The notes under the pieces were generated by a model that saw nothing but the letters and a program-made list of their open reading frames with translations, did no database searches and was not told where the DNA came from. The translations under genes were made by a program, and so were the position numbers. 64,000 nt of DNA, taken from contig NW_027361696.1 of assembly GCF_039654945.1 (NCBI RefSeq), positions 49,228,001-49,292,000 of the forward strand, given 5' to 3'. Shown in pieces: positions 17,771 through 47,768 of the stretch. The stretch is from Dendrobates tinctorius (Eukaryota). Position 1 is the first letter of the stretch. Every line of letters starts with the position of its first letter.

Positions 17771-17954
17771 AACAGACAATTCTATAAAATATAACAATGT
17801 TGAGGGTGTGATCAATGAATAGAATTTCTAGAGCAGGTTCTCAGTTCTCTATGTGCTGACATCACTTCACATTCTCTCTCTCTTGATGCCTGCTGAGTGA
17901 GTGTGGTCTTCCTGGTGCCATGTTCAGCCAATCAGAGCACTCACTGCTCTGTTT

Positions 17955-19820
17955 CCCCTCCCCTTCCCACTTGCAGTCTCACAGACACAAATACTGCAGC
18001 TGCATCTCCCTCCTCATTGTCTCTTACTCATCCGTCAGTATTTTTGAAGGAATGAAGAGGTGTCTCAGGATAATAGCACCTCAATGGGGTTGTGTATTCT
18101 TCTGAAAAGCCTAATTATTAAACATTTTATTCAATAATCAGTCACCAAATAGGAACATTTAAAAAAATTGTCAATTTCCATAAATATGTAACCTGTTCCA
18201 AATGCCGATGTTCTCCTGAATCTGGCATTGTCTTTATTTTGTTCGTGTGCCTCTCCCTCCGTTCCTGAGATCTGACCTCATTTACCTTCTGTGTCAGGCA
18301 AGATTTGTTAGCCAAATGGGCATGGTCCTCAATACTTTTTTTGTGCGTGTATTCTTGATGACCACACCCCTTTGGCTGATAAGAGTAGATTTATCCAGAG
18401 CGAAGAGGGAAATAAAGTTTCCCCTCCCCTTCCCACTTGCAGTCTCACAGACACAAATACTGCAGCTGCATCTCCCTCCTCATTGTCTCTTACTCATCCG
18501 TCAGTATTTTTGAAGGAATGAAGAGGTGTCTCAGGATAATAGCACCTCAATGGGGTTGTGTATTCTTCTGAAAAGCCTAATTATTAAACATTTTATTCAA
18601 TAATCAGTCACCAAATAGGAACATTTAAAAAAAATTGTCAATTTCCATAAATATGTAACCTGTTCCAAATGCCGATGTTCTCCTGAATCTGGCATTGTCT
18701 TTATTTTGTTCGTGTACCTCTCCCTCCGTTCCTGAGATCTGACCTCATTTCCCTTCTGTGTCAGGTAAGATTTGTTAGCCAAATGGGCATGGTCCTCAAC
18801 GATTTTTTTGTGCGTGTATTCTTGATGACCACACCCCTTTGGCTGATAAGAGTAGATTTATCCAGAGTGAAGAGGGAAATAAAGTATCCCCTCCCCTTCC
18901 CACTTGCAGTCTCACAGACACAAATACTGCAGCTGCATCTCCCTCCTCATTGTCTCTTACTCATCCGTCAGTATTTTTGAAGGAATGAAGAGGTGTCTCA
19001 GGATAATAGCACCTCAATGGGGTTGTGTATTCTTCTGAAAAGCCTAATTATTAAACATTTTATTCAATAATCAGTCACCAAATAGGAACATTTAAAAAAA
19101 ATTGTCAATTTCCATAAATATGTAACCTGTTCCAAATGCCGATGTTCTCCTGAATCTGGCATTGTCTTTATTTTGTTCGTGTACCTCTCCCTCCGTTCCT
19201 GAGATCTGACCTCATTTCCCTTCTGTGTCAGGTAAGATTTGTTAGCCAAATGGGCATGGTCCTCAACGATTTTTTTGTGCGTGTATTCTTGATGACCACA
19301 CCCCTTTGGCTGATAAGAGTAGATTTATCCAGAGTGAAGAGGGAAATAAAGTATCCCCTCCCCTTCCCACTTGCAGTCTCACAGACACAAATACTGCAGC
19401 TGCATCTCCCTCCTCATTGTCTCTTACTCATCCGTCAGTATTTTTGAAGGAATGAAGAGGTGTCTCAGGATAATAGCACCTCAATGGGGTTGTGTATTCT
19501 TCTGAAAAGCCTAATTATTAAACATTTTATTCAATAATCAGTCACCAAATAGGAACATTTAAAAAAAATTGTCAATTTCCATAAATATGTAACCTGTTCC
19601 AAATGCCGATGTTCTCCTGAATCTGGCATTGTCTTTATTTTGTTTGTGTACCTCTCCCTCCGTTCCTGAGATCTGACCTCATTTCCCTTCTGTGTCAGGT
19701 AAGATTTGTTAGCCAAATGGGCATGGTCCTCAACGATTTTTTTGTGCGTGTATTCTTGATGACCACACCCCTTTGGCTGATAAGAGTAGATTTATCCAGA
19801 GCGAAGAGGGAAATAAAGTT
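17955..19820. repeat. Tandem repeat, 4 copies of 466-467 bp, near-identical
   Basis: Unit start CCCCTCCCCTTCCCACTTGCAG at 17955, 18421, 18888 and 19355. Confidence 0.95.
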
Positions 19821-22649: not shown

Positions 22650-24025
<1,376 letters not shown>

Positions 24026-24708: not shown

Positions 24709-26365
24709 CCTTCACAGCGTGCTCCCGACTCTGACGGTGAGGATGGAGGAATAGATGTGGACCACCTCATCGATCTCGTCAGAGAAAGGGAGCCGCTATG
24801 GAATATGGCTGACCGCCGCCATGCTGACCTGATAGTTACCCGACGGCTCTGGGAGGAAATCTGTTCGCTCCTTGTGGACCGCTGGGAGGACCTCGATGCT
24901 CGGGCCCAGATTAAAGAGCGTAAGTATATACAGTACCTGTTGCTTGATGTAAACAAGTGTTTCCCGAACTCCAGTCCTCGTGGTCCCCACGGATCATGTG
25001 TTCAGGATTTCTATTTACTATGAAAATCCTGAAAACATGACCCCTGGGGACCATGAGGACTGGAGTTTGGGAAACACTGATGTTGTATACTAACCACTTT
25101 GTCCTTTCTCGTTTCAGGGGAGAGAATTGTGAAGCAGTGGCTGTCTGTGAGGGATCGTTTCAAGAAGGAGTTCAATAAAGAGATGCGGGCCCCGAGTGGA
25201 TCTGGAGGACGCAGGAGCAAGTACAAGTACGCACAAGCCCTGTCGTTCCTCCGGGATACAATGGTCACCAGAAGGTAAATATTACACACCACATGTAAAA
25301 AAAAAAATGTTTAGATGTAAAAAAAAATTTTCAGCCAGGGCCATGCCATGTCACTATTTTAATTGTTTTTTTTTCTCTTTATTCCACAGCACGGTGAGCA
25401 GCACTTGGGAGCCTGCACGGTTGGACCCTTCTGAGGCGATCCCTGAGGAGACCGGCACCGAGGGACACTTCGACCGCCCCGGTACAACTGCACCTTCCCA
25501 GCCTTCCCACACATTAGACCCATCTGTCCCATCCACCAGCACCGGAGCATCGTGGCCGACAACATTCCATGGAGCTGCTGGTGAGGAGATCGCTTTCCCT
25601 TTACCCCACCCTTCTGTCCCTGCCACCTCTAGTACACCTGCAGGTACTGGGCGGCAGCGGCAGAGGGGTCAGGAAAAGAGTTATGCGCCAGAGTTCTTGC
25701 ATCTGAATGCATCTTTCCAGAACAGTCTAAAAGTCTTGTCAGAGCAAATCTCCGCAGGCTTTCAGCAGATCAACTCCAGCATTCTGGAGGTGAAGACACT
25801 TCTGCAAACCATGCATTCAGAAGCAAGATCTTCGCCAAACCACACCTTTTTCAGGTCTGTTGTGGAGCGCATGGAAACGCTCTCTCCTAGCCAGCAGATG
25901 CATGTAATGCATTCGTGCCACGGTGCTCTCCAGCACGTTACCTCCCAACCTCCTCCTCCCACCCCAGTAGTTCCTCCACCTGCACCCCCTCCAGCCACTT
26001 TCCATCCTCCCCCTCCTATTACATACCAGCCACCTCCCCAGTACCAGCAACCTCCCCTTTACCAGACATCTCCCCACTTCCAGCAACCTGCCCCGTACCA
26101 AACTCCTTCCCCGTACCAAACTCCTTCCCCATACCACTTTCCATCCACATCATCTGCTCCTACAGTCCCTGCCCAACCCTCCACTCCACCACCCACCACC
26201 TCTTCTGCCTCCCACATGTCCACCCATTCTCTAGCTTTTTCCACACCTTCACCTCTAACTGTTCCTTCCCCACCACGATCCCAGTCCTCTCTCCACACTC
26301 CCAGTGTCGAAGTGTCCCGCAGCCCCTCCAGCAGTATTTTCACCCCACACTACACAAATTTATAA
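24709..26365 (+). CDS. Harbinger MADF/Myb-SANT-like DNA-binding protein (spliced; additional small upstream exons likely)
   Basis: Exons 24709-24919, 25118-25274 and 25390-26365: LIDLVREREPLWNMADRRH...LWEEI...VKQWLSVRDRFKKE...YKYAQALSFL, a BESS-like FFRSV segment and a Pro-rich tail. Confidence 0.8.
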
Positions 26366-26861: not shown

Positions 26862-28244
26862 TCACACTCTGTCATCCTGCCAGTGTACTCTGCCTTGAGG
26901 TGACATAAAGTATAGTGCAAAATTGTCCCTCATTACTGAAACCGTCACAGAACTTCTAGTGGTAATGTTCTAGTAATCTTGCAAGGTGGTTTCTTCAGAG
27001 GTGTCCTCAATGGAAATGGGTTCCTTGCAGATAACAAAATTGTGGAGTACCACGCAAGCTTTGATCACCTCGTCCACAGTTTCTGTCTTGAGGTTGATCG
27101 CAGTCAATAGGACCCGCCATTTGGCTGTCAGAATACCAAAGGTACATTCAACCATTCTTCTTGCTCTTGTGAGGCGGTAATTAAAAATGTATTTTGTTCT
27201 TGACAATCCTCTGCTACCGTACGGTTTCAAAAGGTGTTCTGACAGCTGGAAGGCTTCATCCCCTACACAGACAAATGGCATAGGTGGTCCAGATATTTGC
27301 GGCAGCGGTCTAGGGCATGGGAACTGGAAGGTGTTTCCATACAGTTTACGCCCCATGGCAGACAGTTTGAAAACTTGAGAGTCATTTGAGCGACCATAGG
27401 CCCCAATATCAACAGCAATAAATTTGTATTCCGCGTCAGCGATGGCCATGAGGACAATTGAAAAATATTTCTTGTAATTGAAATATTCCGATCCCGATCC
27501 AGCTGGCTTTACAATGCGGATATGTTTCCCGCCCACAGCGCCCAAGCAGTTCGGAAACTGACATATCTGTTGAAACTTTTCTGAAATTTCAATCCACCTC
27601 TCTGTTGTGGGCTCTGGTAAAAACTCTTCAGCTAAGGAGTCCCACAGTGCACGGCATGTGTAATTCACTATTCCAGATATGGTGGAAATCCCGAGTCTGT
27701 ACTGGAAATGCAGTGACGAAAGGGATTCTCCAGTTGCAAGAAATCTGTGGGGAATTAAAAAACAATCAATTAGTTTAAAATAACAGCATTACATACCAAA
27801 ACTCAGCTATAACACTTGGAGATACAAACTACCACCAACAAGATTGCAGTGAAAGTGTGCTCTGATGCGAGCATATCCAATAAATGTGGCTTACCTTAAA
27901 GTCACCATCAGACGCTCTGCGGGTGAAACAGAGAAGCGGCAATAGGTGTCCGATTTTCTTATGAGGTGTGCAATGCGCTCCACCAAGTAATCAAAATTCT
28001 CCATTTTCATCCGAACATATCCAAAAAATTTCTCTGGGTTTCGTCTAAGGTCCATGCAGAGTGTAGAATAGACCCCACGCGTCATTCTCTTGGCTGTGAT
28101 GGGGTGGATCCACAAACGTCGTCTACGATGCCTGATGTGCTGCTGTCTCGCTCTCTCCTTCTCCAGAACAATCACCCTCAAACGATTCGCCTCCGCTGTA
28201 AAATCCGCCAAATTCTTCAAAATATTTCCAATCACAACATCCAT
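26862..28244 (-). pseudogene. Harbinger DDE transposase, defective
   Basis: Exons 28244-27895 and 27744-26862 (RLMVTLR|FLATG); FPNCLGAVGGKH (catalytic D changed to G), NYKKYFSIVL, GDEAF, RRMVECTFG, CVVLHNF; premature TAG at 26970. Confidence 0.9.
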
Positions 28245-31500: not shown

Positions 31501-34040
31501 CGAGGCAGAGCAAGCAAAGACCATAGGGAAAAACAAGGCAGAGCAAGACAAGGTACGGAACAAGGCATAGCGAAAACAGGCAAGGCAGAGAAACAGAAGG
31601 ACTACAAGTCCAAGCAGGACAAAGACGAACATGGCACAACAGACAAACATAAGACAAGGCACAGGACAAGAGATGGAGTACGGGCACGGAGCGTGTGCAG
31701 AGACGCACGACAGGGCAGAGTGCAAGGGCACAGAATAGAGGGAGTGCCCCACAGACCAAGCAGCCATGCAGGGACACCACACAATACTCAGGCCCTGAGC
31801 AAAGGAAGGGGCGGCCTGATATAGGGCATAGCACCTCCTCTTCCAGGTCAGGACCAGGGGAGCACTTCCGGGTTCAGATCCACAGGATAACAGAGCACAG
31901 TCACATGATCAGAGTTCCAGACATGACGAGACGACTGCAGATCCAGTGCTGAAACCTAGACAGGTCACATGATCAGAGTTCTAGACATGACGAGATGATT
32001 ACCGAACCAGACAGTGCAGGATCTTTAGGAAATGTCACATGATCAGCGTTCCAGACATGACGAGATGATTGCAGAACCAGACAGTGCAGGATCCAGGCAG
32101 GGACACATGATCAGGGACTCTAGACAAGACGAGAAGATCACAGAAGGCAGAGCAGAAACGCAGGCATCCTGCAGCTCAGACATGAGGTGAGAGTGCACAC
32201 TGCTCTAGTGAACATGCAGGACAGCAGACAAGATATGCGCATGCACATCGCTCCAGGAGTTCTTGAGACAAAACAGACATGGCAGACATGGCGGACATGA
32301 CAGGGACTTTAATATGGTGCCAGATGGTGTACTAGACTCCACCTCTCCCAGCAGACAAAAAATGCAATCCTTGAACAGCTGGATTTATAATCACGAGCTA
32401 TTCGATTCATTCCGCTGTTTGAACACCACATCTAGAGAATTTACTCATTTTTCTGATGGCCATCAGTCGGCATCTAGAATAGATCTGATACTCTCAGATG
32501 TCTTCTCCTTGCCAAGGTTCTCCTCCAGCTCCATACTTAATAAATCTATTTCAGATCATTCCCCGGTAACTGCAGAACTGATAATAGGGTCCCCAATTCA
32601 TGTGGAAATTCAACTCCTCTCTGCTTTATAACCCCACCATCAAATCTGAAATCAGCTCAGCCTTATAAAATTATTTTAGTGAAAACGAATCAAACCTCTT
32701 CAGTCCGTTTACCTATTGGAATGCTCACAAGGCGGTGTTGAGGGGAGTCTTGATTCAAATTTCCTCCAGACAAAAGAAAATTAATAGGGATAAAATCCTT
32801 ACCCTACAACAGTCTATTAAATCTAAAGAAGAGGAACTATCTTGATCCTCTGTTTCCTCTAACAAACAAGCTGTATTATCAGAACTTACTGATCTCAGGT
32901 TGCAGTTAAGGAAAATCATATTCAATTTTTACGACTCAGCTATTAGATCAGCAAAATGCAAACATTACTTATCTATAAATCGCCCTTCAAAATACATGTC
33001 AAACAGAATTAAGAATATACGGAAACGGAATAGAATTGACAGTATAACGTCCTCTAATGGTACATCCCTGGTCCACCCTAAAGATATTGTAGGAGCTTTT
33101 GCCGATTATTACAAAAATCTGTACAATATCAACCAAGACCACCACAATATGCAGCCATCTACCTCAGAGATTGGATCATTTCTTTCCAGCATGAACCTTC
33201 CAAAGCTTAACCCTGAAGACTTATCATTTTTGCCTTCTCCCTTCAATGTACAAGAAGTCCTAGATACTATAAAAAAACTTAAAACATTCAAATCACCCGG
33301 CCCAGACGGGTTTAGTAATGATTATTTCAAGTCTTTTAGTAATATATTAACCCCCCACCTTGTCAAAGTATTTAACTCAGCTTTCCAAACAGGTCAATTT
33401 CCTAAAGAGATGCTGGAAGCGACAATTATCGTAATCCCAAAACCAAATTCTGACACTAGCCAAATTTTTAATTATAGACCTATATCCCTTATCAATACAG
33501 ACGTAAAAATGTATGCAAAGATCCTGGCCAATAGACTAAATCAATTCCTCCCGAGTTTAATTTCCAATGATCAGATAGGGTTCATCAAAGGAAGACAATC
33601 CATAGATGGTGCGAGAAGACTCATTAACATAATTAAGCTTATTTCCTCGAACAAACTCAGGGCCATTGTTACTCTCTTGATGCTGAGAAAGTGTTTGACT
33701 GCCTTAATTGGTCATATCTCGAAGCAACTCTCAAAAAATTTGGAATGGCTTCTCAGATCACGAGAGGTATTATGGCTTTGTACTCCGGCCCTGGTGCGAG
33801 GGTTTATTCCAACAATCATCTTTCCTCTACGTTTAATATAGCTAATGGGACCAGACAGGGTTGCCCATTCTCACCATTGCTTTTTGCATTAGCTATTGAA
33901 CCTCTGGCCCAACTTATCAGGAGCAGCACAAAGATCTCGGGAATCAAAACTTTGCACAGAGATTTTAAAATAGCATTGTATGCAGACGATATTATTCTTA
34001 CCCTCACAGATCCAAGCCACTCTATCTCTGCCTTCCAGGA
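28591..34040 (+). mobile_element. L1-clade LINE, degenerate and interrupted
   Basis: ORF1 C-terminus (IDRIHRL...YKWGFP, to 29018); ORF2 APE endonuclease SYNVRGLN/LQET from 29455, resuming GDFN/SRID/SDH after 32302; RT motifs KSPGPDG, YRPISL, GTRQGCP, LYADD; stops and frameshifts. Confidence 0.92.
29864..32302. mobile_element. Non-coding LTR-type insertion (TG...CA) with internal tandem repeats, splitting L1 ORF2
   Basis: Begins TGTTACG, ends CATGACA, and interrupts the L1 endonuclease just before its GDFN motif; no TSD seen. Confidence 0.6.
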
Positions 34041-39796: not shown

Positions 39797-42700
39797 GTAA
39801 GAAGTAATCTATGTTCTCAATAACTGGGCCATACGTAGTACAGTTTGATGATGTTATGTATTATTTCCAATCTTGGCCATGCCAAATACTAAACCCTAAA
39901 ATAGACGGTGGATGGTGGGGTTAGACCACCTACTGTTAGGCTCCTTTCATTCCAGGCATTGGTCTCACCTGTCTGTTGAACTTGAAGGTCATCTGTATGT
40001 AATAATATTCTCTTTACTGTTCTAAAGCGGTGAGTCTTTACTGTGAGAAGTGTGAAAACTACCATGGAAAAACTTGCGAAAACACAACTACCGAGATCTG
40101 CGATCCATCAGTCACAAGTTGCAGAACTACTGTGATGTTTGAACATATCGGTAACTACATTTCATGATTAACAATATACGTTTCTTAAAAATGTCCCAAA
40201 TAATACATTCTTATAGTAGGTATATTCTTGTGAATAGGAACAGTATTATAGTAGGTATATTCTTATACATGGAGCAGTATTATAGTAGCTATATTCTTGT
40301 ACAATATGGGGAAGTATTATAGTAGTTATATTCTTGTACATAGGGGCAATATTATAGTAGTTATATTCTTGTACAAAGGAGCAGTAATATAGTAGTTATA
40401 TTCTTGTACATAGGGGGTAGTATTATAGTAGTTATATTCTTGTACATAAGGGCAGTATTATAGTAGTTATAGTCTTGTACATAGGGAGCAGTATTTATAG
40501 TAGTTATATTCTTGTACATAGAGGACAGTATTATAGTAGTTATAGTCTTGTACATAGGGAGCAGTATTTATAGTAGTTATATTCTTGTACATAGGGGCAG
40601 TATTATTATAGTTATATTCTTGTACATAGGAGCAGTATTATAGTAGTTATATTCTTGTACATAAGGGCAGTATTATAGTAGTTATAGTCTTGTACATAGG
40701 GAGCAGTATTTATAGTAGTTATATTCTTGTACATAGAGGACAGTATTATAGTAGTTATAGTCTTGTACATAGGGAGCAGTATTTATAGTAGTTATATTCT
40801 TGTACATAGGGGCAGTATTATTATAGTTATATTCTTGTACATAGGAGCAGTATTATTATAGTTATATTCTTGTACATAAGGGCAGTATTATAGTAGTTAT
40901 AGTCTTGTACATAGGGAGCAGTATTTATAATAGTTATATTCTTGTACATAGGGGCAGTATTATAGTAGTTATATTCTTGTACATAGGAGCAGTATTATAG
41001 TAGTTATAGTCTTGTACATAGGGACAGTATTGTATTAGTTATATTCTTGTGCATGAGTCAGTATTTTATAGTAGTTATATTGTTGTACATAGGGTTAGTT
41101 TTATAGCAGTTTTAGTCTTGTACATAAGAGGCAGTATTATAGTAGTTATATCCTTGTACATAAGGGGCAGTATTATAGTAATTATATTCTTGTACATAGG
41201 GGGCAGTATTATAGTAGTTATATTCTTGTACATAGGGACAGCATTATAGTAGTTATATTCTTGTACATAGGGAGCATTTTTATAGTAATTATATTCTTGT
41301 ACATAGGGACAGTATTGTATTAGTTATATTCCTGTGCATGAGGCAGTATTTTATAGTAGTTATATTGTTGTACATAGGGGCAGTTTTATAGTAGTTTTAG
41401 TCTTGTACATAAGAGGCAGTATTATAGTAGTTATATCCTTGTACATAAGTGGCAGTATTATAGTAATTATATTCTTGTACATAGGGGCAGTATTATAGTA
41501 GTTATATTATTGTACATAGGGACAGCATTATAGTAGTTATATTCTAGCACATAGGGGGCAGTATTATAGTAGTTATATTCTTGTACATAGGGGCAGTATT
41601 ATAGTAGTTATATTCTTGTACATAGGGGCAGTATTACAGTAGTTATATTCTTGTACAGTGGGGCAGTATTATAGTAGTTATATTCTTGTACATAGGGGCA
41701 GTATTATAGTAGTTATATCCTTGTACATAAGGGGCAGTATTATAGTAATTATATTCTTGTACATAGGGGCAGTATTATAGTAGTTATATTATTGCACATA
41801 GGGACAGCATTATAGTAGTTATATTCTAGCACATAGGGGGCAGTATTATAGTAGTTATATTCTTGTACATAGGGGCAGTATTATAGTAGTTATATTCTTG
41901 TACATAGGGGGCAGTATTATAGTAGTTATATTCTTGTACATAGGGGGCAGTATTATAGTAGTTATATTTTTGTATATAAGAGTGTAAGAGCAGTATTATA
42001 GTAGTTATATTCTTGTACATAGCGGGCAGTATTATAGTAGTTATATTCTTGTATATTCTTATATTTCCCATACACGAGGCTATTTTGGTGATGGGTGCTG
42101 TGCATTCTCCTTTGCCAGTTTCGTTGCATGCGTAGCACTGCATGCCAGTTAGGGTCGAATTCACTGTCACTGTTGGAGAAAAAAAAAGACAATGGAAATA
42201 GTTTGTCACCACAGAGGTATTGCACCTTCTCCTAAGGTGTAGTGCCCCACCATCCAGGTAAGTTGGGAGCTCCTTTCCACACTCCAGCACTCGCATCCCA
42301 CACAACAGGGTAGTTCTGCACAATCACATTGCGGCTCAGCGCTTAGAGAGTAGCAGAGCACCTCTGGTGGTTCCCTGCATGGAACACTGGACGTGCTGGG
42401 AGGTGGGTGGAGTTGAGATCCATATAAAAGATTGGGAAGGTTTAGAATTACAGTTCAGTCTGACTGTCTAGAAGTCAGTCTGACGGGAGGTCAGGCGGGA
42501 GGAGGACAGTCAGTCAGGAGAGTCTGAGGACGGGTCCGAGGAGAAGAAGAGCTGCAGCTGCCTCGGTGATCTGAGCCAGCTGGCACGGGAAAGGAACAGA
42601 AGGAGAAAGACGTAGAACTGCAACCTAAGCTTCCATAAGAGAGGGAAGGAACAGTGCGGAACGAAGGAGTAGGAGAACAGAGAGGAGTTGTGGGTCGGAA

Positions 42701-45700
42701 GAGGAACCCTGCCTATAGATTCTCAGTGCAAGGCCGGGGCCCGGTCCCCGAGGTTGTATGGACGCTTATGGTTCTGCAGCAGACACCGGTGGAGTAGTTG
42801 GTTGTAAATGCACTACTCCCATCTAAGACTTGGGGCACAACAGCAACTGAATAGAGAGCCAGGACTCTGGAGAAGGGAGTCTCTGAGAGAGGCTACAGCT
42901 GTCTGCCATATGAGTAGAGTTGTTAGGAACATCTGACAGGAGGAACTCCAGAGTATCACGGTACTGGAGCTCTTCACACCTTAAGGCGCAATAGAGGAGT
43001 CGTTCAGGAAAGGTACATGTTGGCGGAGTGTTGGAGAGGAGAATCCTGACTTGCCTGGGAGGTTGATTGAGTCTCTGCCCCGGAGGACACGGCACGGAGG
43101 CAGGCACCAGTGTGTACCATGGACTGTGAGTAAAGCTTTGGAACTACAAGCCCTGGTGTCTTCCATTCCTTTCTGCGCTAACACCGTCAGCACCGCTACA
43201 TCTGGGTACCAGCATTCCTCACACCGCCTGCGCCTATCCTCATCTATTGCAATTACACTGCCCTGGGGTTACAGTTTCACCTGTGGGGAGCTACACCATC
43301 TATGCTGCAACACACCATCAGCCCCAGAGGATCTGCACACAGCGTTGGCTTAACATCTTGCTTGCCAAACACCACAGGTGGCATCACGAACTATTCCATT
43401 TCATTAACTACATTCCCCCATTACTTGGGTGCCCAGGGCCACGGACCGGGTCACCGCTGCTGTGACACATTCCCCTGACACCGGCCCGGTACCAAGCACC
43501 CCACAGCCCTGGGAGGGCGACCCAATTTTGGCGTCACGAACAGGATGACGAGACCCGATACCATCGAGTTCTGTGCGCCTGAAATTGTGAGACTTTGAAC
43601 TTTTGAAAATGTGCAGAAGACCCAATTTAATAGACTGTAAAATGGACATTAGAAATGGCCGCTGGCGCAGAGAAGAAGGGCGTGAAGAGATGGGAGGTCC
43701 TAGGAAAAGACCGCGAAGAGTATTGGGCCTTCCCTGCCTGAATTACTATGTGACAGCAACATGGCCCACCCCCCGAGTAGTTCGTATACTGGCTTGGTAT
43801 GGAGGCGCTGGAAGAAGACGCCGCCCCTGGAAGGAGGGGCAGAAGAAGCCAGTGGCGGGAAAGGGGCCGAGGCAGGAAGAAGAACGCCAGAACGCCATTT
43901 TGGAGCATGAGGGAAGGAGGCCTGCGGAGCACGGGGAAACGGATCTCCCTGGCGCCATGGCTGAAGGCTCCGACCCGATCTCAGAGATGAACCGCCGGCA
44001 GCTGGAAGAAGAAATAGTCGAGCTGACCACCCGGCTGCAGCTGAGACAGGAGGCCTTGGAGAGGCTGAACCGGCAACATGCCCAGGAGGGGCCTACGCCT
44101 GCGGTACCCGCTCCACCGGTACCTGCTGAGGCCGCGCTATTGCCTGGACCTGACGCGGCTGCGCAGGTCCCATCGGAGACCCCTGCGGACCCGGAACCAT
44201 CACCCGCTCCACCACCGCTAGCACCCTGGCCAGCCATTCCGGTGGATATCCCGGCAGCAGCTCACCGCCTCAAGCCTGCACTGGAGCTGGAAGACTGCCA
44301 GGAGTGCCCAGGTAGGACTGCAGCCCCTGAACCTGGGAAGGCCCTGGGTTGTGCGCCCGTGGTAGCGGCAGGGCAGGTCGTGCTGGACCTTGTCTGGGAC
44401 CGGGATGCTAGTCCCGAGGGTGAGACATCTGAACCCCTAACGGTGGTGCCGCGGGCCCCGGTGGGTGCGAGCAGGTCCCGGGAGGAGCGGGAGGAAGAAG
44501 AGAACTGGGCCAGCTGTCAGGCCACCATCCGGCAGCTGGCAGCTGAATATCGGGAGAGGAAGCAGAGAAAGATGGCTGTGCTGGGCCCGTATCTAGCCCG
44601 AAAGGAGAAAACCGTGGTGGTCACTTTGGTCACCGGGATTCAGCAGGATGGGGCCAGGTTCTCAACGTGAATCGGGAGCGGGGGTTCGGGTTTATCTCTG
44701 ACCCCAAACGGATCTCCGACCTGTTCTTTAGCCAGAGAGACGTTGAGTCCCATCTGAGTAAGGGACACCTGGACCGGAATCTGGAACCTGGGGAGTATGT
44801 GACATTCACCCGGCATGAGGGGCTCAGGGGGTGATATGCCCTGAATATACGCCGTATCCCGGAGGAGCTTGCTGAGAGGTACAGGCTGAAGCGACCTGCT
44901 GCACCTCCACCCACAGTTGTTACCCAGACTGCTAGAACACCGGCTGCCCTTGCACCAGCTCCAGCCCGGCAGCCTAAGCCAAAGGTCCCCAACTTGACAC
45001 CTTGGAAAGAGGAGTACCTGAGGATGGCCAATGAGTACCTTGCATCTGGTAGCAGTTCCAGTTCGGCTTCCAGAACCCTTTGTTGTCTTGCAGCCCGCGG
45101 ACATGCTGTGTTTAACGGGGGGGGGGTTGGCTTAACATCTGCTTGCCAAACACCACAGGTGGCGTCACGAACTATTCCATTTCATTAACTACATTCCCCC
45201 ATTACTTGGTCGCCTAGGGTCACGGACCGGGTCACCGCTGCTGTGACACATTCCCCTGACACCAGCCCGGTACCGAGTACCCCACAGCCCTGGGAGGGCG
45301 ACCCATCACCACCCTAGATTTCACCAACCAACTCCAAAAAGAGACCCATGGGTTCAATGGCACAAACAGACAGAAATGAGTCCCTGTGCAAGAACACTAT
45401 ATGAGTCCTTTTCATTTTTCACAGTTCTCCTATGACAGAAGCTCCTTATTGCTCTAGGAGGTGGTAGTGGCCCCATTACTTCTTGGGCCTCAGGCTGCAC
45501 CAATGATATGTCCGCCCCTGCTTGGGTTGTATTTTATGGGAAGTTTGTAAACCTCTACCTCTTTTCTGAAAATGAAAAGATGGAGCATATGGAAATCCAA
45601 CAGCCCAATCCTGTATCTAGGTAGGGCACTGTCTAAAAACGTAACAAAAATGTCTCATTTGCTTTTGAGTGCACAGTACCTGCTTGAACGCCATGGTTGA

Positions 45701-47768
45701 AGTACTTGTTCCCACAACATGACACCTCCGTGTAAACCCTGGGACCACCGGTGTTATATGCCAACTGCCGACCACACAGGTTACCCGTTGCACAACCTTT
45801 ATAGACAACGTTCGAGCTGGAATCTGCAGAAATGGGAGAATTATTAGGAATGGGATCTGTGACGAGGTGTCCATACACACTTCACGGGCTGGTCTTACCA
45901 TTGACATACACAGTTTGGATCGTCATGCAGCGATCTTGTACTCCGCCACATTGGAGGGATGTCAGGTTGGACGCTGCACAGGTCACATTGTTACCTTCAC
46001 AGGACTCACAAAATAGAGCGGCAACAGGGACTCGAGCTGGAAAAGAAAATGAAAGTCCTGAATAAATAGGAAGAAAATGACCACAATTGGATGATCTTTC
46101 CTAAGCCGGATCAGAACTACATTTTCTATTCTAAGGCTACTTTCACACTTGCGCTTTTTTGCTGCGCATTTTTTGCGCACACAAACCGCATCATGCGTTT
46201 GTGGGTGTTTTTTTGCGGGTTTTGGTGCGCTTTTTTAAAAAACGCATGCGTTTTTTAATGGGTGTTTTGCTGTAAAAAAAACGCATTGCGTGCGCATGCG
46301 TTTTTTTGGGACAAGTCGGACGCACAAAAAATGCAACAGGATGCATTTTGTGCGCCCGAGTGCACACTACAAAAAAACGCATGTGCGTACAAACGCATGT
46401 GTATGCGCACCTATGCGCACCCATGTTAAAGTATAGGGGAAAAAACGCATGCGTTTTTTTGCGCTACAAAAAGCGCAAAAAAACGCAAGTGTGAAACCAG
46501 CCTCACATGGACATGAAATTGCTTTCAATCTAAAGTTCTCTGCACCATGATCTGTTAATTTCCACCATGATCTTATCAATTCAATTTTCAATTTCATGTC
46601 CTTTTCTAAAAAGTTACCAGGGAACCCCAAAACACCATATTGGGGATCATAAGAAGAAGCAAGTCCATACTCTTCTATTTCTCGGAGGGTGACGCTGTCA
46701 AAGCTCCCATTTTAATAAAATGATTTACAAATAGACTTCTAGAATTGAGCACCATTGGTACCATTTGTGAATTAGGTCCCCATATATTTAAAATTTGGCC
46801 CTTCGGCTTTTGCACCATCAACTGCATCGGTTGAACGAGAGCCTCCTATAAACTGTGAATAAATGGAAAATATTATCTATTGACAGCATAGGATGAATAT
46901 TCTGACTGACTTGCTTGTAACATACCGTAGTAGGTGTCAGTGTTGCATAAGTCTGTGATGCAGCACGTGGAACTAACATAGGTTTTCCTGAAGCCCAAAT
47001 CCGTATAAATTGTCTCATTGCACACAAGTCCCTGTGAACAACCTTTGTATGTCCATTCTGTAACGCTCCCATTCTCTGAAAAAGAATGCATAATAGTAGT
47101 TACATTCTTGTACATAGGGGCAGTATTATAGTAGTTATATTCTTGTAAATAGGGGCAGTATTATAGCAGTTATATTCTTGTACATAGGGACAGCATTATA
47201 GTATATTTTTGTCATTTAAAATCAATTGTGTTATATTTTTAGGTAATGGGAAGTTCTACCAGATCTGGAAGTCTTGTGCAAACTCTCCATCCCTGTGTAA
47301 CCTAACTTTCAACATGACAGTGGGAATTGACATCTATAGCTTAACAAAGTGCTGCAAGGGAAACCTCTGTAATAGTGAATCACTACCATGTAAGTTGAAT
47401 GAATGTGCTATACCCATATATTTCATTTTACTATATGTCCAGAAATTATCTCCTGTTATAAAGATTAACCATATTTATGCAGCTGAGTGCTTATCCTTAT
47501 ACAAATATTGGCAAGTCTGTCAGAATTTTGCAAACAGGACCAATAATAAATGGGTTCTACGGTCAAAGCTATTACTCTGAAGCATATCCAGGGCATGTCA
47601 TTGTTGAACAGTGCTTCATAAAAAGACAAAATTATATTGTCCTACTTGGAAAATTCATCTTTGATTAAAAAAAATTGTTAAGAATAGATTAGTTTTAGAA
47701 TGTCCGGCTCTGAGACCCAAGGGATCATCTAATCGGAGAGTGTAACAGGCGGCCAGTGCTCATTTTCA

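Follow-up and report, generated by a model that had tools for sequence, protein, structure and literature searches.

The stretch of DNA analysed here (hereafter the window) comprises 64,000 nucleotides of the Dendrobates tinctorius genome (NCBI RefSeq assembly GCF_039654945.1, contig NW_027361696.1, positions 49,228,001 to 49,292,000 of the forward strand). At 42205-45305 it contains a long terminal repeat (LTR) retroelement whose only open reading frame (ORF) encodes a cold-shock domain (CSD). The copy is a broken, deleted member of a large non-autonomous LTR family, the full-length members of which are used below to define its parts. In the following list, pLDDT is the predicted local distance difference test score and omega the ratio of nonsynonymous to synonymous change among variants shared between copies.

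42205..43524, +, 5' LTR, first ~20 nt absent, ending in GGCGACCCA; limits from alignment to full copies
43529..43546, +, primer-binding site (PBS) for tRNA-Ser(CGA), a tRNA gene found in the same genome; the PBS and the next ~55 nt are common to the autonomous partner described below
43609..43956, +, N-terminal part of the ORF, basic and Arg-rich; no confident fold (pLDDT <50), moderate constraint
43993..44082, +, coiled-coil-type helix, 3' of a second ATG at 43957; pLDDT >90, omega 0.11
44083..44499, +, Pro/Ala-rich linker; ~100 nt gone after 44124, omega 0.41
44500..44650, +, long charged helix preceding the CSD; frameshift near 44611, helix at residues 2-41 in the model of a related copy, omega 0.12
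44652..44855, +, cold-shock domain carrying RNP1 and RNP2, interrupted by an in-frame stop (44832-44834); identified by Pfam, PDB profile, Foldseek and VIA, omega 0.04
44856..45078, +, Pro/Thr-rich C-terminal tail with a Ser-rich end, cut by a ~760-nt deletion
45114..45126, +, polypurine tract (PPT), a G-run; the same tract adjoins the 3' LTR in full copies
45127..45305, +, what is left of the 3' LTR, its final ~180 nt, 95% identical to the end of the 5' LTR

The first-pass annotation had placed the element at 42238..45305. Its end holds, but the family LTRs begin ~54 nt further 5', and this copy starts near 42205. The LTR-type direct repeats recognized at that stage (43359-43524 and 45140-45305) are 95% identical over 166 nt. 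The reverse complement of the 18-nt PBS consists of the 15 nt that end a tRNA-Ser(CGA) gene of this genome, followed by CCA, in line with the primer first suggested; one of the two pattern matches in the genome was called as a tRNA. The G-run is a real PPT: in full copies it lies immediately 5' of the 3' LTR. A frameshift had also been noted; alignment to full copies puts it near 44611 rather than 44645. With this frameshift, the stop within the CSD and three deletions (~100 nt lost after 44124, a further ~760 nt after 45078, and ~1.1 kb from the 3' LTR), the copy is indeed dead. The deletions account for its 3-kb size, full copies being ~5 kb, and the ~760-nt deletion also removes a conserved 3' block with a UGUAHAUA motif. 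No target-site duplication is seen because the first ~20 nt of the 5' LTR are missing.

The copy and its flanks (42061-47207) are duplicated ~690 kb away with the same breaks (98.7% identity over 4.2 kb; L051, G000:C28, near 49.96 Mb), which represents a segmental duplication or a second haplotype and not a separate insertion. The break in the 3' LTR, at LTR position ~1104, recurs in three copies (window 45127, L054 and L057), possibly marking a deletion hot spot.

Identification of the cold-shock domain

Pfam PF00313 matches 44652-44855, with X at the stop, at 40.4 bits (E 2.6e-10; cut-off 27), and the open part alone scores 32.3 bits (E 8.9e-8). No second Pfam family rises above its cut-off in the three scanned frames of the window copy, in agreement with the earlier description of an ORF that has no protease, reverse transcriptase, integrase or CCHC knuckle. 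Among five open ORFs from other family members, four exceed the CSD cut-off and the fifth reaches 26.5. A structural model of the helix and CSD from a related open copy (mean pLDDT 79.5) contains a 40-residue helix and five strands; the five-stranded OB barrel is seen in the predicted model and RNP1 and RNP2 in the motif columns. The coiled-coil-like segment remarked on earlier is also predicted to be helical, with pLDDT >90 in a related copy. The top structural matches in Foldseek are all cold-shock proteins (TM score 0.90 to CspA by target length), and VIA aligned the CSD model to CspA with Z 11.7 (root-mean-square deviation (rmsd) 1.8, 69 aligned) and to YB-1 with Z 11.5 (rmsd 2.1, 75 aligned; model 44-122 to YB-1 52-129). 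The segment is a cold-shock domain, as both checks of the original proposal, profile search and predicted fold, bear out.

A profile built from nine relatives ranked YB-1/YBX2 first in the PDB (34 bits, E 2e-7), followed by a bacterial protein (31.4), with LIN28 (18 bits), CARHSP1 and CSDE1 lower. Among animal CSD classes, a Y-box origin appears the likeliest. In the structural comparison CspA and YB-1 are level, and by profile the best bacterial protein comes close to YB-1. The family domain is 26-33% identical to solved CSDs and has a conserved loop of its own. The aromatic positions of RNP1 and RNP2 are retained in 22 family copies and in 20 divergent copies. PDB matches came only with the profile; phmmer with one CSD region found none at E 0.01. 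A word-index protein search with the whole ORF gave no match among 8000 scored, and one with the CSD region of a relative returned only itself among 130. An Atlas look-up gave CSD clusters at 0.85, which we treat as a lead only, and no usable match to the N-terminal 160 amino acids.

A large family without gag or pol

A CSD query of the 6.36-Gb genome gave 4139 first-look candidates, the best 150 of which were scored; 140 of these best 150 have no stop inside the CSD. A strict 33-nt CSD motif has 271 exact matches, and the family numbers hundreds to thousands of copies. Forty copies chosen from the CSD matches follow a common plan of LTR (~1.3 kb), internal region (~2.5 kb) and LTR, ~5 kb in total. 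Full copies have TG...CA LTRs, the tRNA-Ser(CGA) PBS, the PPT and 4-bp target duplications. Their single ORF of ~520 amino acids encodes the coiled coil, Pro/Ala linker, helix and CSD and a Pro/Thr/Ser-rich tail of ~80 residues. The CSD is the sole Pfam domain in open family ORFs, with neither gag nor pol, and no CCHC knuckle was found in the five open ORFs scanned. No longer, pol-bearing form of the CSD family was found by LTR spacing in 40 ten-kb stretches. The non-autonomous, CSD-bearing LTR family first suspected from a single copy is therefore real. An Rfam scan of a full copy gave no matches at E 0.1. Two loci (L062 and L070) have a tandem LTR-internal-LTR-internal-LTR structure with units 98% identical.

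To sample the family independently of the CSD, we used the LTR end plus PBS, which has 2322 exact occurrences in the genome. From 100 listed places, 91 were retained after exclusion of nine near-duplicates: 29 are of a gag/pol type, 22 are non-autonomous with the CSD and 40 are non-autonomous without it. Where both ends are readable, an exact 4-bp duplication flanks 6 of 9 CSD copies and 11 of 15 CSD-less copies. The CSD is open in 18 of the 22 PBS-selected copies that carry it, and one frame from coiled coil to CSD survives in only six.

A phmmer search of 1.84 billion representative proteins returned 16 at E <=0.001. The five strongest, all unnamed or automatically named, come from Ranitomeya variabilis, R. 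imitator, Phyllobates terribilis and Anomaloglossus baeobatrachus (two), and the other 11 are weak matches to proteins with several short matches. Repeats are often omitted from annotation, so a protein search is silent on absence in other frogs. D. tinctorius itself has additional families, in which the CSD region shares 40-56% identity with one of the foreign frog proteins, and most of 20 divergent-family copies share LTR, PBS or PPT pieces with the window family. A 41-row tree places four of the five foreign proteins among the D. tinctorius families (moderate support, long branches flagged), so the radiation of CSD elements is likely older than several poison-frog genera. In contigs of three runs from one study, guessed to be RNA, the LTR and leader are well covered and the CSD thinly, a pattern uninformative as to expression.

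Selection on the ORF

Of the 22 CSD copies selected by PBS, we dropped one that has an insertion and measured selection on the other 21, a set that avoids the bias of picking copies by CSD similarity. Variants present in at least three copies were counted as shared, reflecting active lineages, and private variants as mostly post-insertion decay; CpG transitions, variants found in two copies only and codon changes of more than one base were left out. Shared variants in the CSD comprise 10 nonsynonymous and 70 synonymous changes (omega 0.04), whereas private variants comprise 36 and 16 (omega 0.69; Fisher p 2.5e-11). Since shared variants are not independent events, such p-values exaggerate the certainty; the controls nevertheless turn out as they should: shifted and antisense CSD frames give omega 2.1-9.0 and 3' non-coding sequence 0.73-0.98. 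Elsewhere in the ORF, shared-variant omega is 0.12 in the helix, 0.11 in the coiled coil, 0.28 in the N-terminal part, 0.33 in the C-terminal tail and 0.41 in the linker, and no shared stop occurs anywhere in the frame. Simple pairwise pN/pS, in which decay is also counted, comes to 0.19 in the CSD and ranges from 0.29 to 0.70 in the other regions (0.60 in the N-terminal part). In the multiplying lineages, CSD, helix and coiled coil are under purifying selection, which is strong on the CSD. The CSD is functional at the level of the family and dead in the window copy.

These values dispose of the idea that the element carries a fragment of host Y-box mRNA as a neutral passenger. Most copies are broken, as the six intact frames illustrate, and a passenger would look so; it is refuted by the shared-variant omega, the pairwise pN/pS and the conservation of the motifs across families that share just 40-56% identity with a relative in another genus.

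A likely Gypsy-type partner

The first-pass annotation had recommended a search for an autonomous Gypsy or retroviral partner, and a Gypsy-type element with the same LTR end and PBS exists. It is ~8.7 kb long, with LTRs of 1.0 kb and a short gap to the 3' LTR. Pfam finds PNMA, RVT_1, RT_RNaseH_2, Integrase_H2C2 and rve; the Gag is PNMA-type with its own CCHC knuckle, and a protease motif can be read by eye. The order Gag, protease, reverse transcriptase, RNase H, integrase, without env, is that of Ty3/Gypsy. DNA common to the partner and the family is limited to two LTR blocks (~70-85%), the PBS plus ~55 nt and a 3' motif, and their U3 parts differ. The family ORF has no tblastn match at E up to 1 in six partner copies, and none of 12 ten-kb partner stretches contains a CSD. 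Median mismatch between paired LTRs is 3.4% for CSD copies (18 of 22 with a pair), 3.5% for CSD-less copies (30 of 40) and 3.5% for the partner (6 of 12). From shared sequence and equal age, the 8.7-kb element is likely the helper of the non-autonomous family; helper and dependants probably moved together, by trans-mobilization. Partner Gag has omega 0.09 (26 copies), from which the CSD does not differ significantly.

An apparent fusion of gag and CSD (copy L141) turned out to be a non-autonomous copy with deletions that is nested within a partner element, and hence no fusion. Between protease and reverse transcriptase of one partner copy (L102:3166-4131) there is a weak dUTPase-like score (E 0.041), below the cut-off.

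Exchange of C-terminal cassettes

The CSD-less copies comprise single deletions and several multi-copy subfamilies in which the C-terminal half of the ORF is replaced, with the frame still ending in the same Ser-rich tail. In a group of 18 copies with an alternative module (variants shared at a threshold of two copies), omega is 0.11 for the coiled coil and 0.40 for the module; no Pfam family was found in two ORFs of this kind. Cassette type is scattered on a 5' tree, built from the first 375 nt (15 changes against a shuffled mean of 16.9). This lack of clustering points to frequent recombination, as expected if different RNAs are co-packaged. The replacement module of L127, L129, L132, L138, L140, L145, L115, L177 and others is ~70 amino acids long, without a Pfam match and moderately constrained, and a third group has yet another C-terminal half and no coiled coil.

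A conserved 3' block

A block of ~85 nt near the 3' end is retained by 53 of the 62 non-autonomous copies and by 8 of the 20 divergent ones. Within it, UGUAHAUA, a Pumilio response element (PMC5758885), occurs in 51 of the 53 and in 4 of the 8, with the degenerate position varying among A, U and C; shuffles of the block contain it in 149 of 12200 cases. In all four partner copies tested, the motif is found once or twice near the 3' LTR (~0.06 expected), the second in similar context. More than 1 kb separates the motif from the probable poly(A) word of the LTR. Folding of the block is weak (consensus energy -4.4 kcal/mol, almost no two-sided changes), and we therefore claim no structure. For reference, the block is at L049:3612-3694, and the partner motifs are at L102:6850 and 6976 and at L106:7850 and 7972.

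Proposed mechanism and alternatives

We consider that, with a probability of about one half, the gag-less and pol-less family is copied by the Gypsy-type partner, and its CSD protein binds the element's own RNA and aids its survival and packaging. The element RNA would be primed by tRNA-Ser(CGA), packaged in a partner Gag particle, and reverse transcribed and integrated by partner enzymes. The CSD protein would be translated from the element's own RNA and contact single-stranded RNA, while the coiled coil might serve self-association or docking on another protein, and the gain to the element's RNA could come through stability, storage or loading. Selection on the ORF inside a non-autonomous lineage suggests that the product favoured the lineage encoding it. 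There is a viral precedent: host YB-1 is reported to co-localize with Gag and RNA of mouse mammary tumour virus, and YB-1 knockdown to lower particle production (PMC4486188).

Several observations weigh against this proposal. The CSD is absent from 40 of the 62 non-autonomous copies, which are equal in age, and the coiled coil from about ten; since so many copies do without it, the CSD is an accessory and not a required nucleocapsid. It may best be regarded as an optional booster cassette, with sister lineages exchanging C-terminal modules by recombination and still multiplying. Two residues of the canonical binding face, in YB-1 a Trp in beta-1 and a His in RNP2, are replaced in the family CSD, so affinity or specificity may differ. 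The helper role is read from shared sequence and age, and a product acting in trans can likewise come under purifying selection where each cell has few active source elements.

A fuller version, which we hold tentatively, would make the family a satellite-like lineage, older than several poison-frog genera, that lacks gag and pol and has its own coiled-coil scaffold gene with swappable cassettes. Among these, a captured Y-box-like CSD would mark the RNA for Pumilio-controlled storage in oocytes and for preferential loading into the capsids of the Gypsy helper.

Mimicry of maternal RNA overlaps with own-RNA binding and packaging and stresses timing over packaging. The CSD protein would mask element RNA in oocytes as Y-box proteins do, and Pumilio, perhaps with CPEB, would act on the 3' block to keep the RNA in store for the embryo or germ line. 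The top PDB profile matches (YB-1/YBX2), the Pumilio-type motif in 51 of 53 non-autonomous copies and its excess near the partner 3' LTR are in keeping with this, and published work reports cooperation of PUM2 and CPEB1 in Xenopus oocytes (PMC3736149) and abundant Gypsy RNA in the ova of a poison frog (PMC6278860). The motif is, however, also present in CSD-less copies and the partner, hence independent of the CSD; its counts come from related and so non-independent copies; its distance from the poly(A) word is far for control by a cytoplasmic polyadenylation element; and the protein has no Y-box C-terminal charged repeats. We therefore consider this reading possible, with the odds well against it.

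Somewhat less probable is a trans-acting competitor or counter-defence factor that binds partner RNA, small-RNA precursors or silencing factors and so frees particles or lifts repression for all members. As would be expected of free-riders, families without the CSD are more numerous than those with it and equally old, the swappable cassettes resemble accessory genes, and the CSD of LIN28 acts on let-7 precursors (from PDB titles). Selection on a product open to all members ought to be weak, however, and omega is no higher than in partner Gag; the CCHC knuckles of LIN28 are also missing.

We regard as unlikely a role at the DNA level, with the CSD acting on single-stranded cDNA as an annealing chaperone or on Y-box-like sites in the LTR as a transcription regulator, and the Arg-rich N-terminus serving nuclear import. 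CSDs do also bind single-stranded DNA (again from PDB titles) and the Arg-rich stretch is under constraint, but the CCHC nucleocapsid of the partner already serves reverse transcription.

A nucleocapsid substitute, one of the two functions first suggested for the domain, is largely excluded. The ORF does follow the PBS directly, where gag would sit, but a degenerate Gag with a CSD in place of its zinc knuckle is at odds with the absence of a capsid family from all five open ORFs scanned, the absence of any tblastn match in six partner copies (E up to 1), the lack of a predicted folded domain in residues 1-116, the partner's own CCHC knuckle and the dispensability of the CSD.

Comparison with known systems

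Non-autonomous LTR retrotransposons are usually non-coding or gag-only, and are usually regarded as passive carriers of cis signals. Similar to LARD, TRIM and Cassandra elements, the window family has LTRs, PBS, PPT and target duplication, lacks pol and would depend on a helper; unlike them, it encodes a selected protein unrelated to Gag.

Capture of PF00313 by LTR elements has itself been reported, for 46 bird endogenous retroviruses (ERVs) and as a repeated event (PMC12287698). The bird elements bear reverse transcriptase and the position of their CSD varies, whereas the window family has a dedicated ORF and neither gag nor pol. Two of 45 tabulated bird ERVs, those compared here, score E 1e-24 to 1e-25 (CDD), which suggests host-like sequence; the window-family CSD is far from solved CSDs, and selection on it is demonstrated. 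The earlier remark that no characterized family of this kind was known stands in so far as we found no paper on it, judging from titles and the starts of abstracts; subscription journals, Repbase, Dfam and repeat supplements of frog genomes may hold the family unnamed. Given the bird ERVs, novelty is somewhat lower than was first assumed.

PNMA-type Ty3/Gypsy elements (Metaviridae) of fish, amphibians and reptiles are reported to have an extra, putatively RNA-binding domain at the N-terminus, without an assigned role (PMC11011659); the term 'cold shock' is absent from the main text of that paper. The partner shares their PNMA-type capsid, but there the RNA-binding domain is fused to Gag in autonomous elements, and here the CSD lies in a separate, non-autonomous one. 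Retand plant Gypsy elements, some of them non-autonomous, have additional ORFs with a predicted nucleic-acid-binding domain (PMC11963269), an accessory ORF comparable to that of the window family; theirs is antisense, follows pol and encodes a TRP28 domain. The frog LTR-element domains listed in PMC4131045 include no CSD.

The C-terminal domain of Y-box proteins is long and alternates between basic and acidic blocks, and LIN28 has a CSD followed by two CCHC knuckles. YB-1/YBX2 resemble the family ORF in having a Pro/Ala-rich region before the CSD, but identity is ~28%, the family ORF adds the coiled coil and helix, and its tail is short (~80 residues) and Pro/Thr/Ser-rich in place of the charged blocks. 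The five open family ORFs contain none of the LIN28-type knuckles.

If a non-Gag protein with a CSD is constrained like the Gag of its helper, a parasite of a parasite would be managing its own RNA. The family offers a handle on the competition of non-autonomous RNAs for helper particles and on the repeated capture of CSDs by retroelements (no function is reported for the bird ERVs), and its sister lineages of the same age, with and without the CSD, form a built-in natural comparison. It is also one contributor to the very large genomes of poison frogs.

Other features of the window

Just left of the element is a 35-bp tandem satellite of ~52 copies (40211-42053), seen again at 47093-47203, and nested inverted repeats resembling a miniature inverted-repeat transposable element lie at 46134-46503. 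Further left, a 467-bp unit is present in four copies at 99% identity (17951-19820). Three other segments carry frames that, read by eye, resemble a Tc1 transposase (22967-23701, -), a Harbinger-type nuclease (26970-27788, -) with a neighbouring ORF (25151-26365, +), and the reverse transcriptase of a long interspersed element (32846-33841, +).

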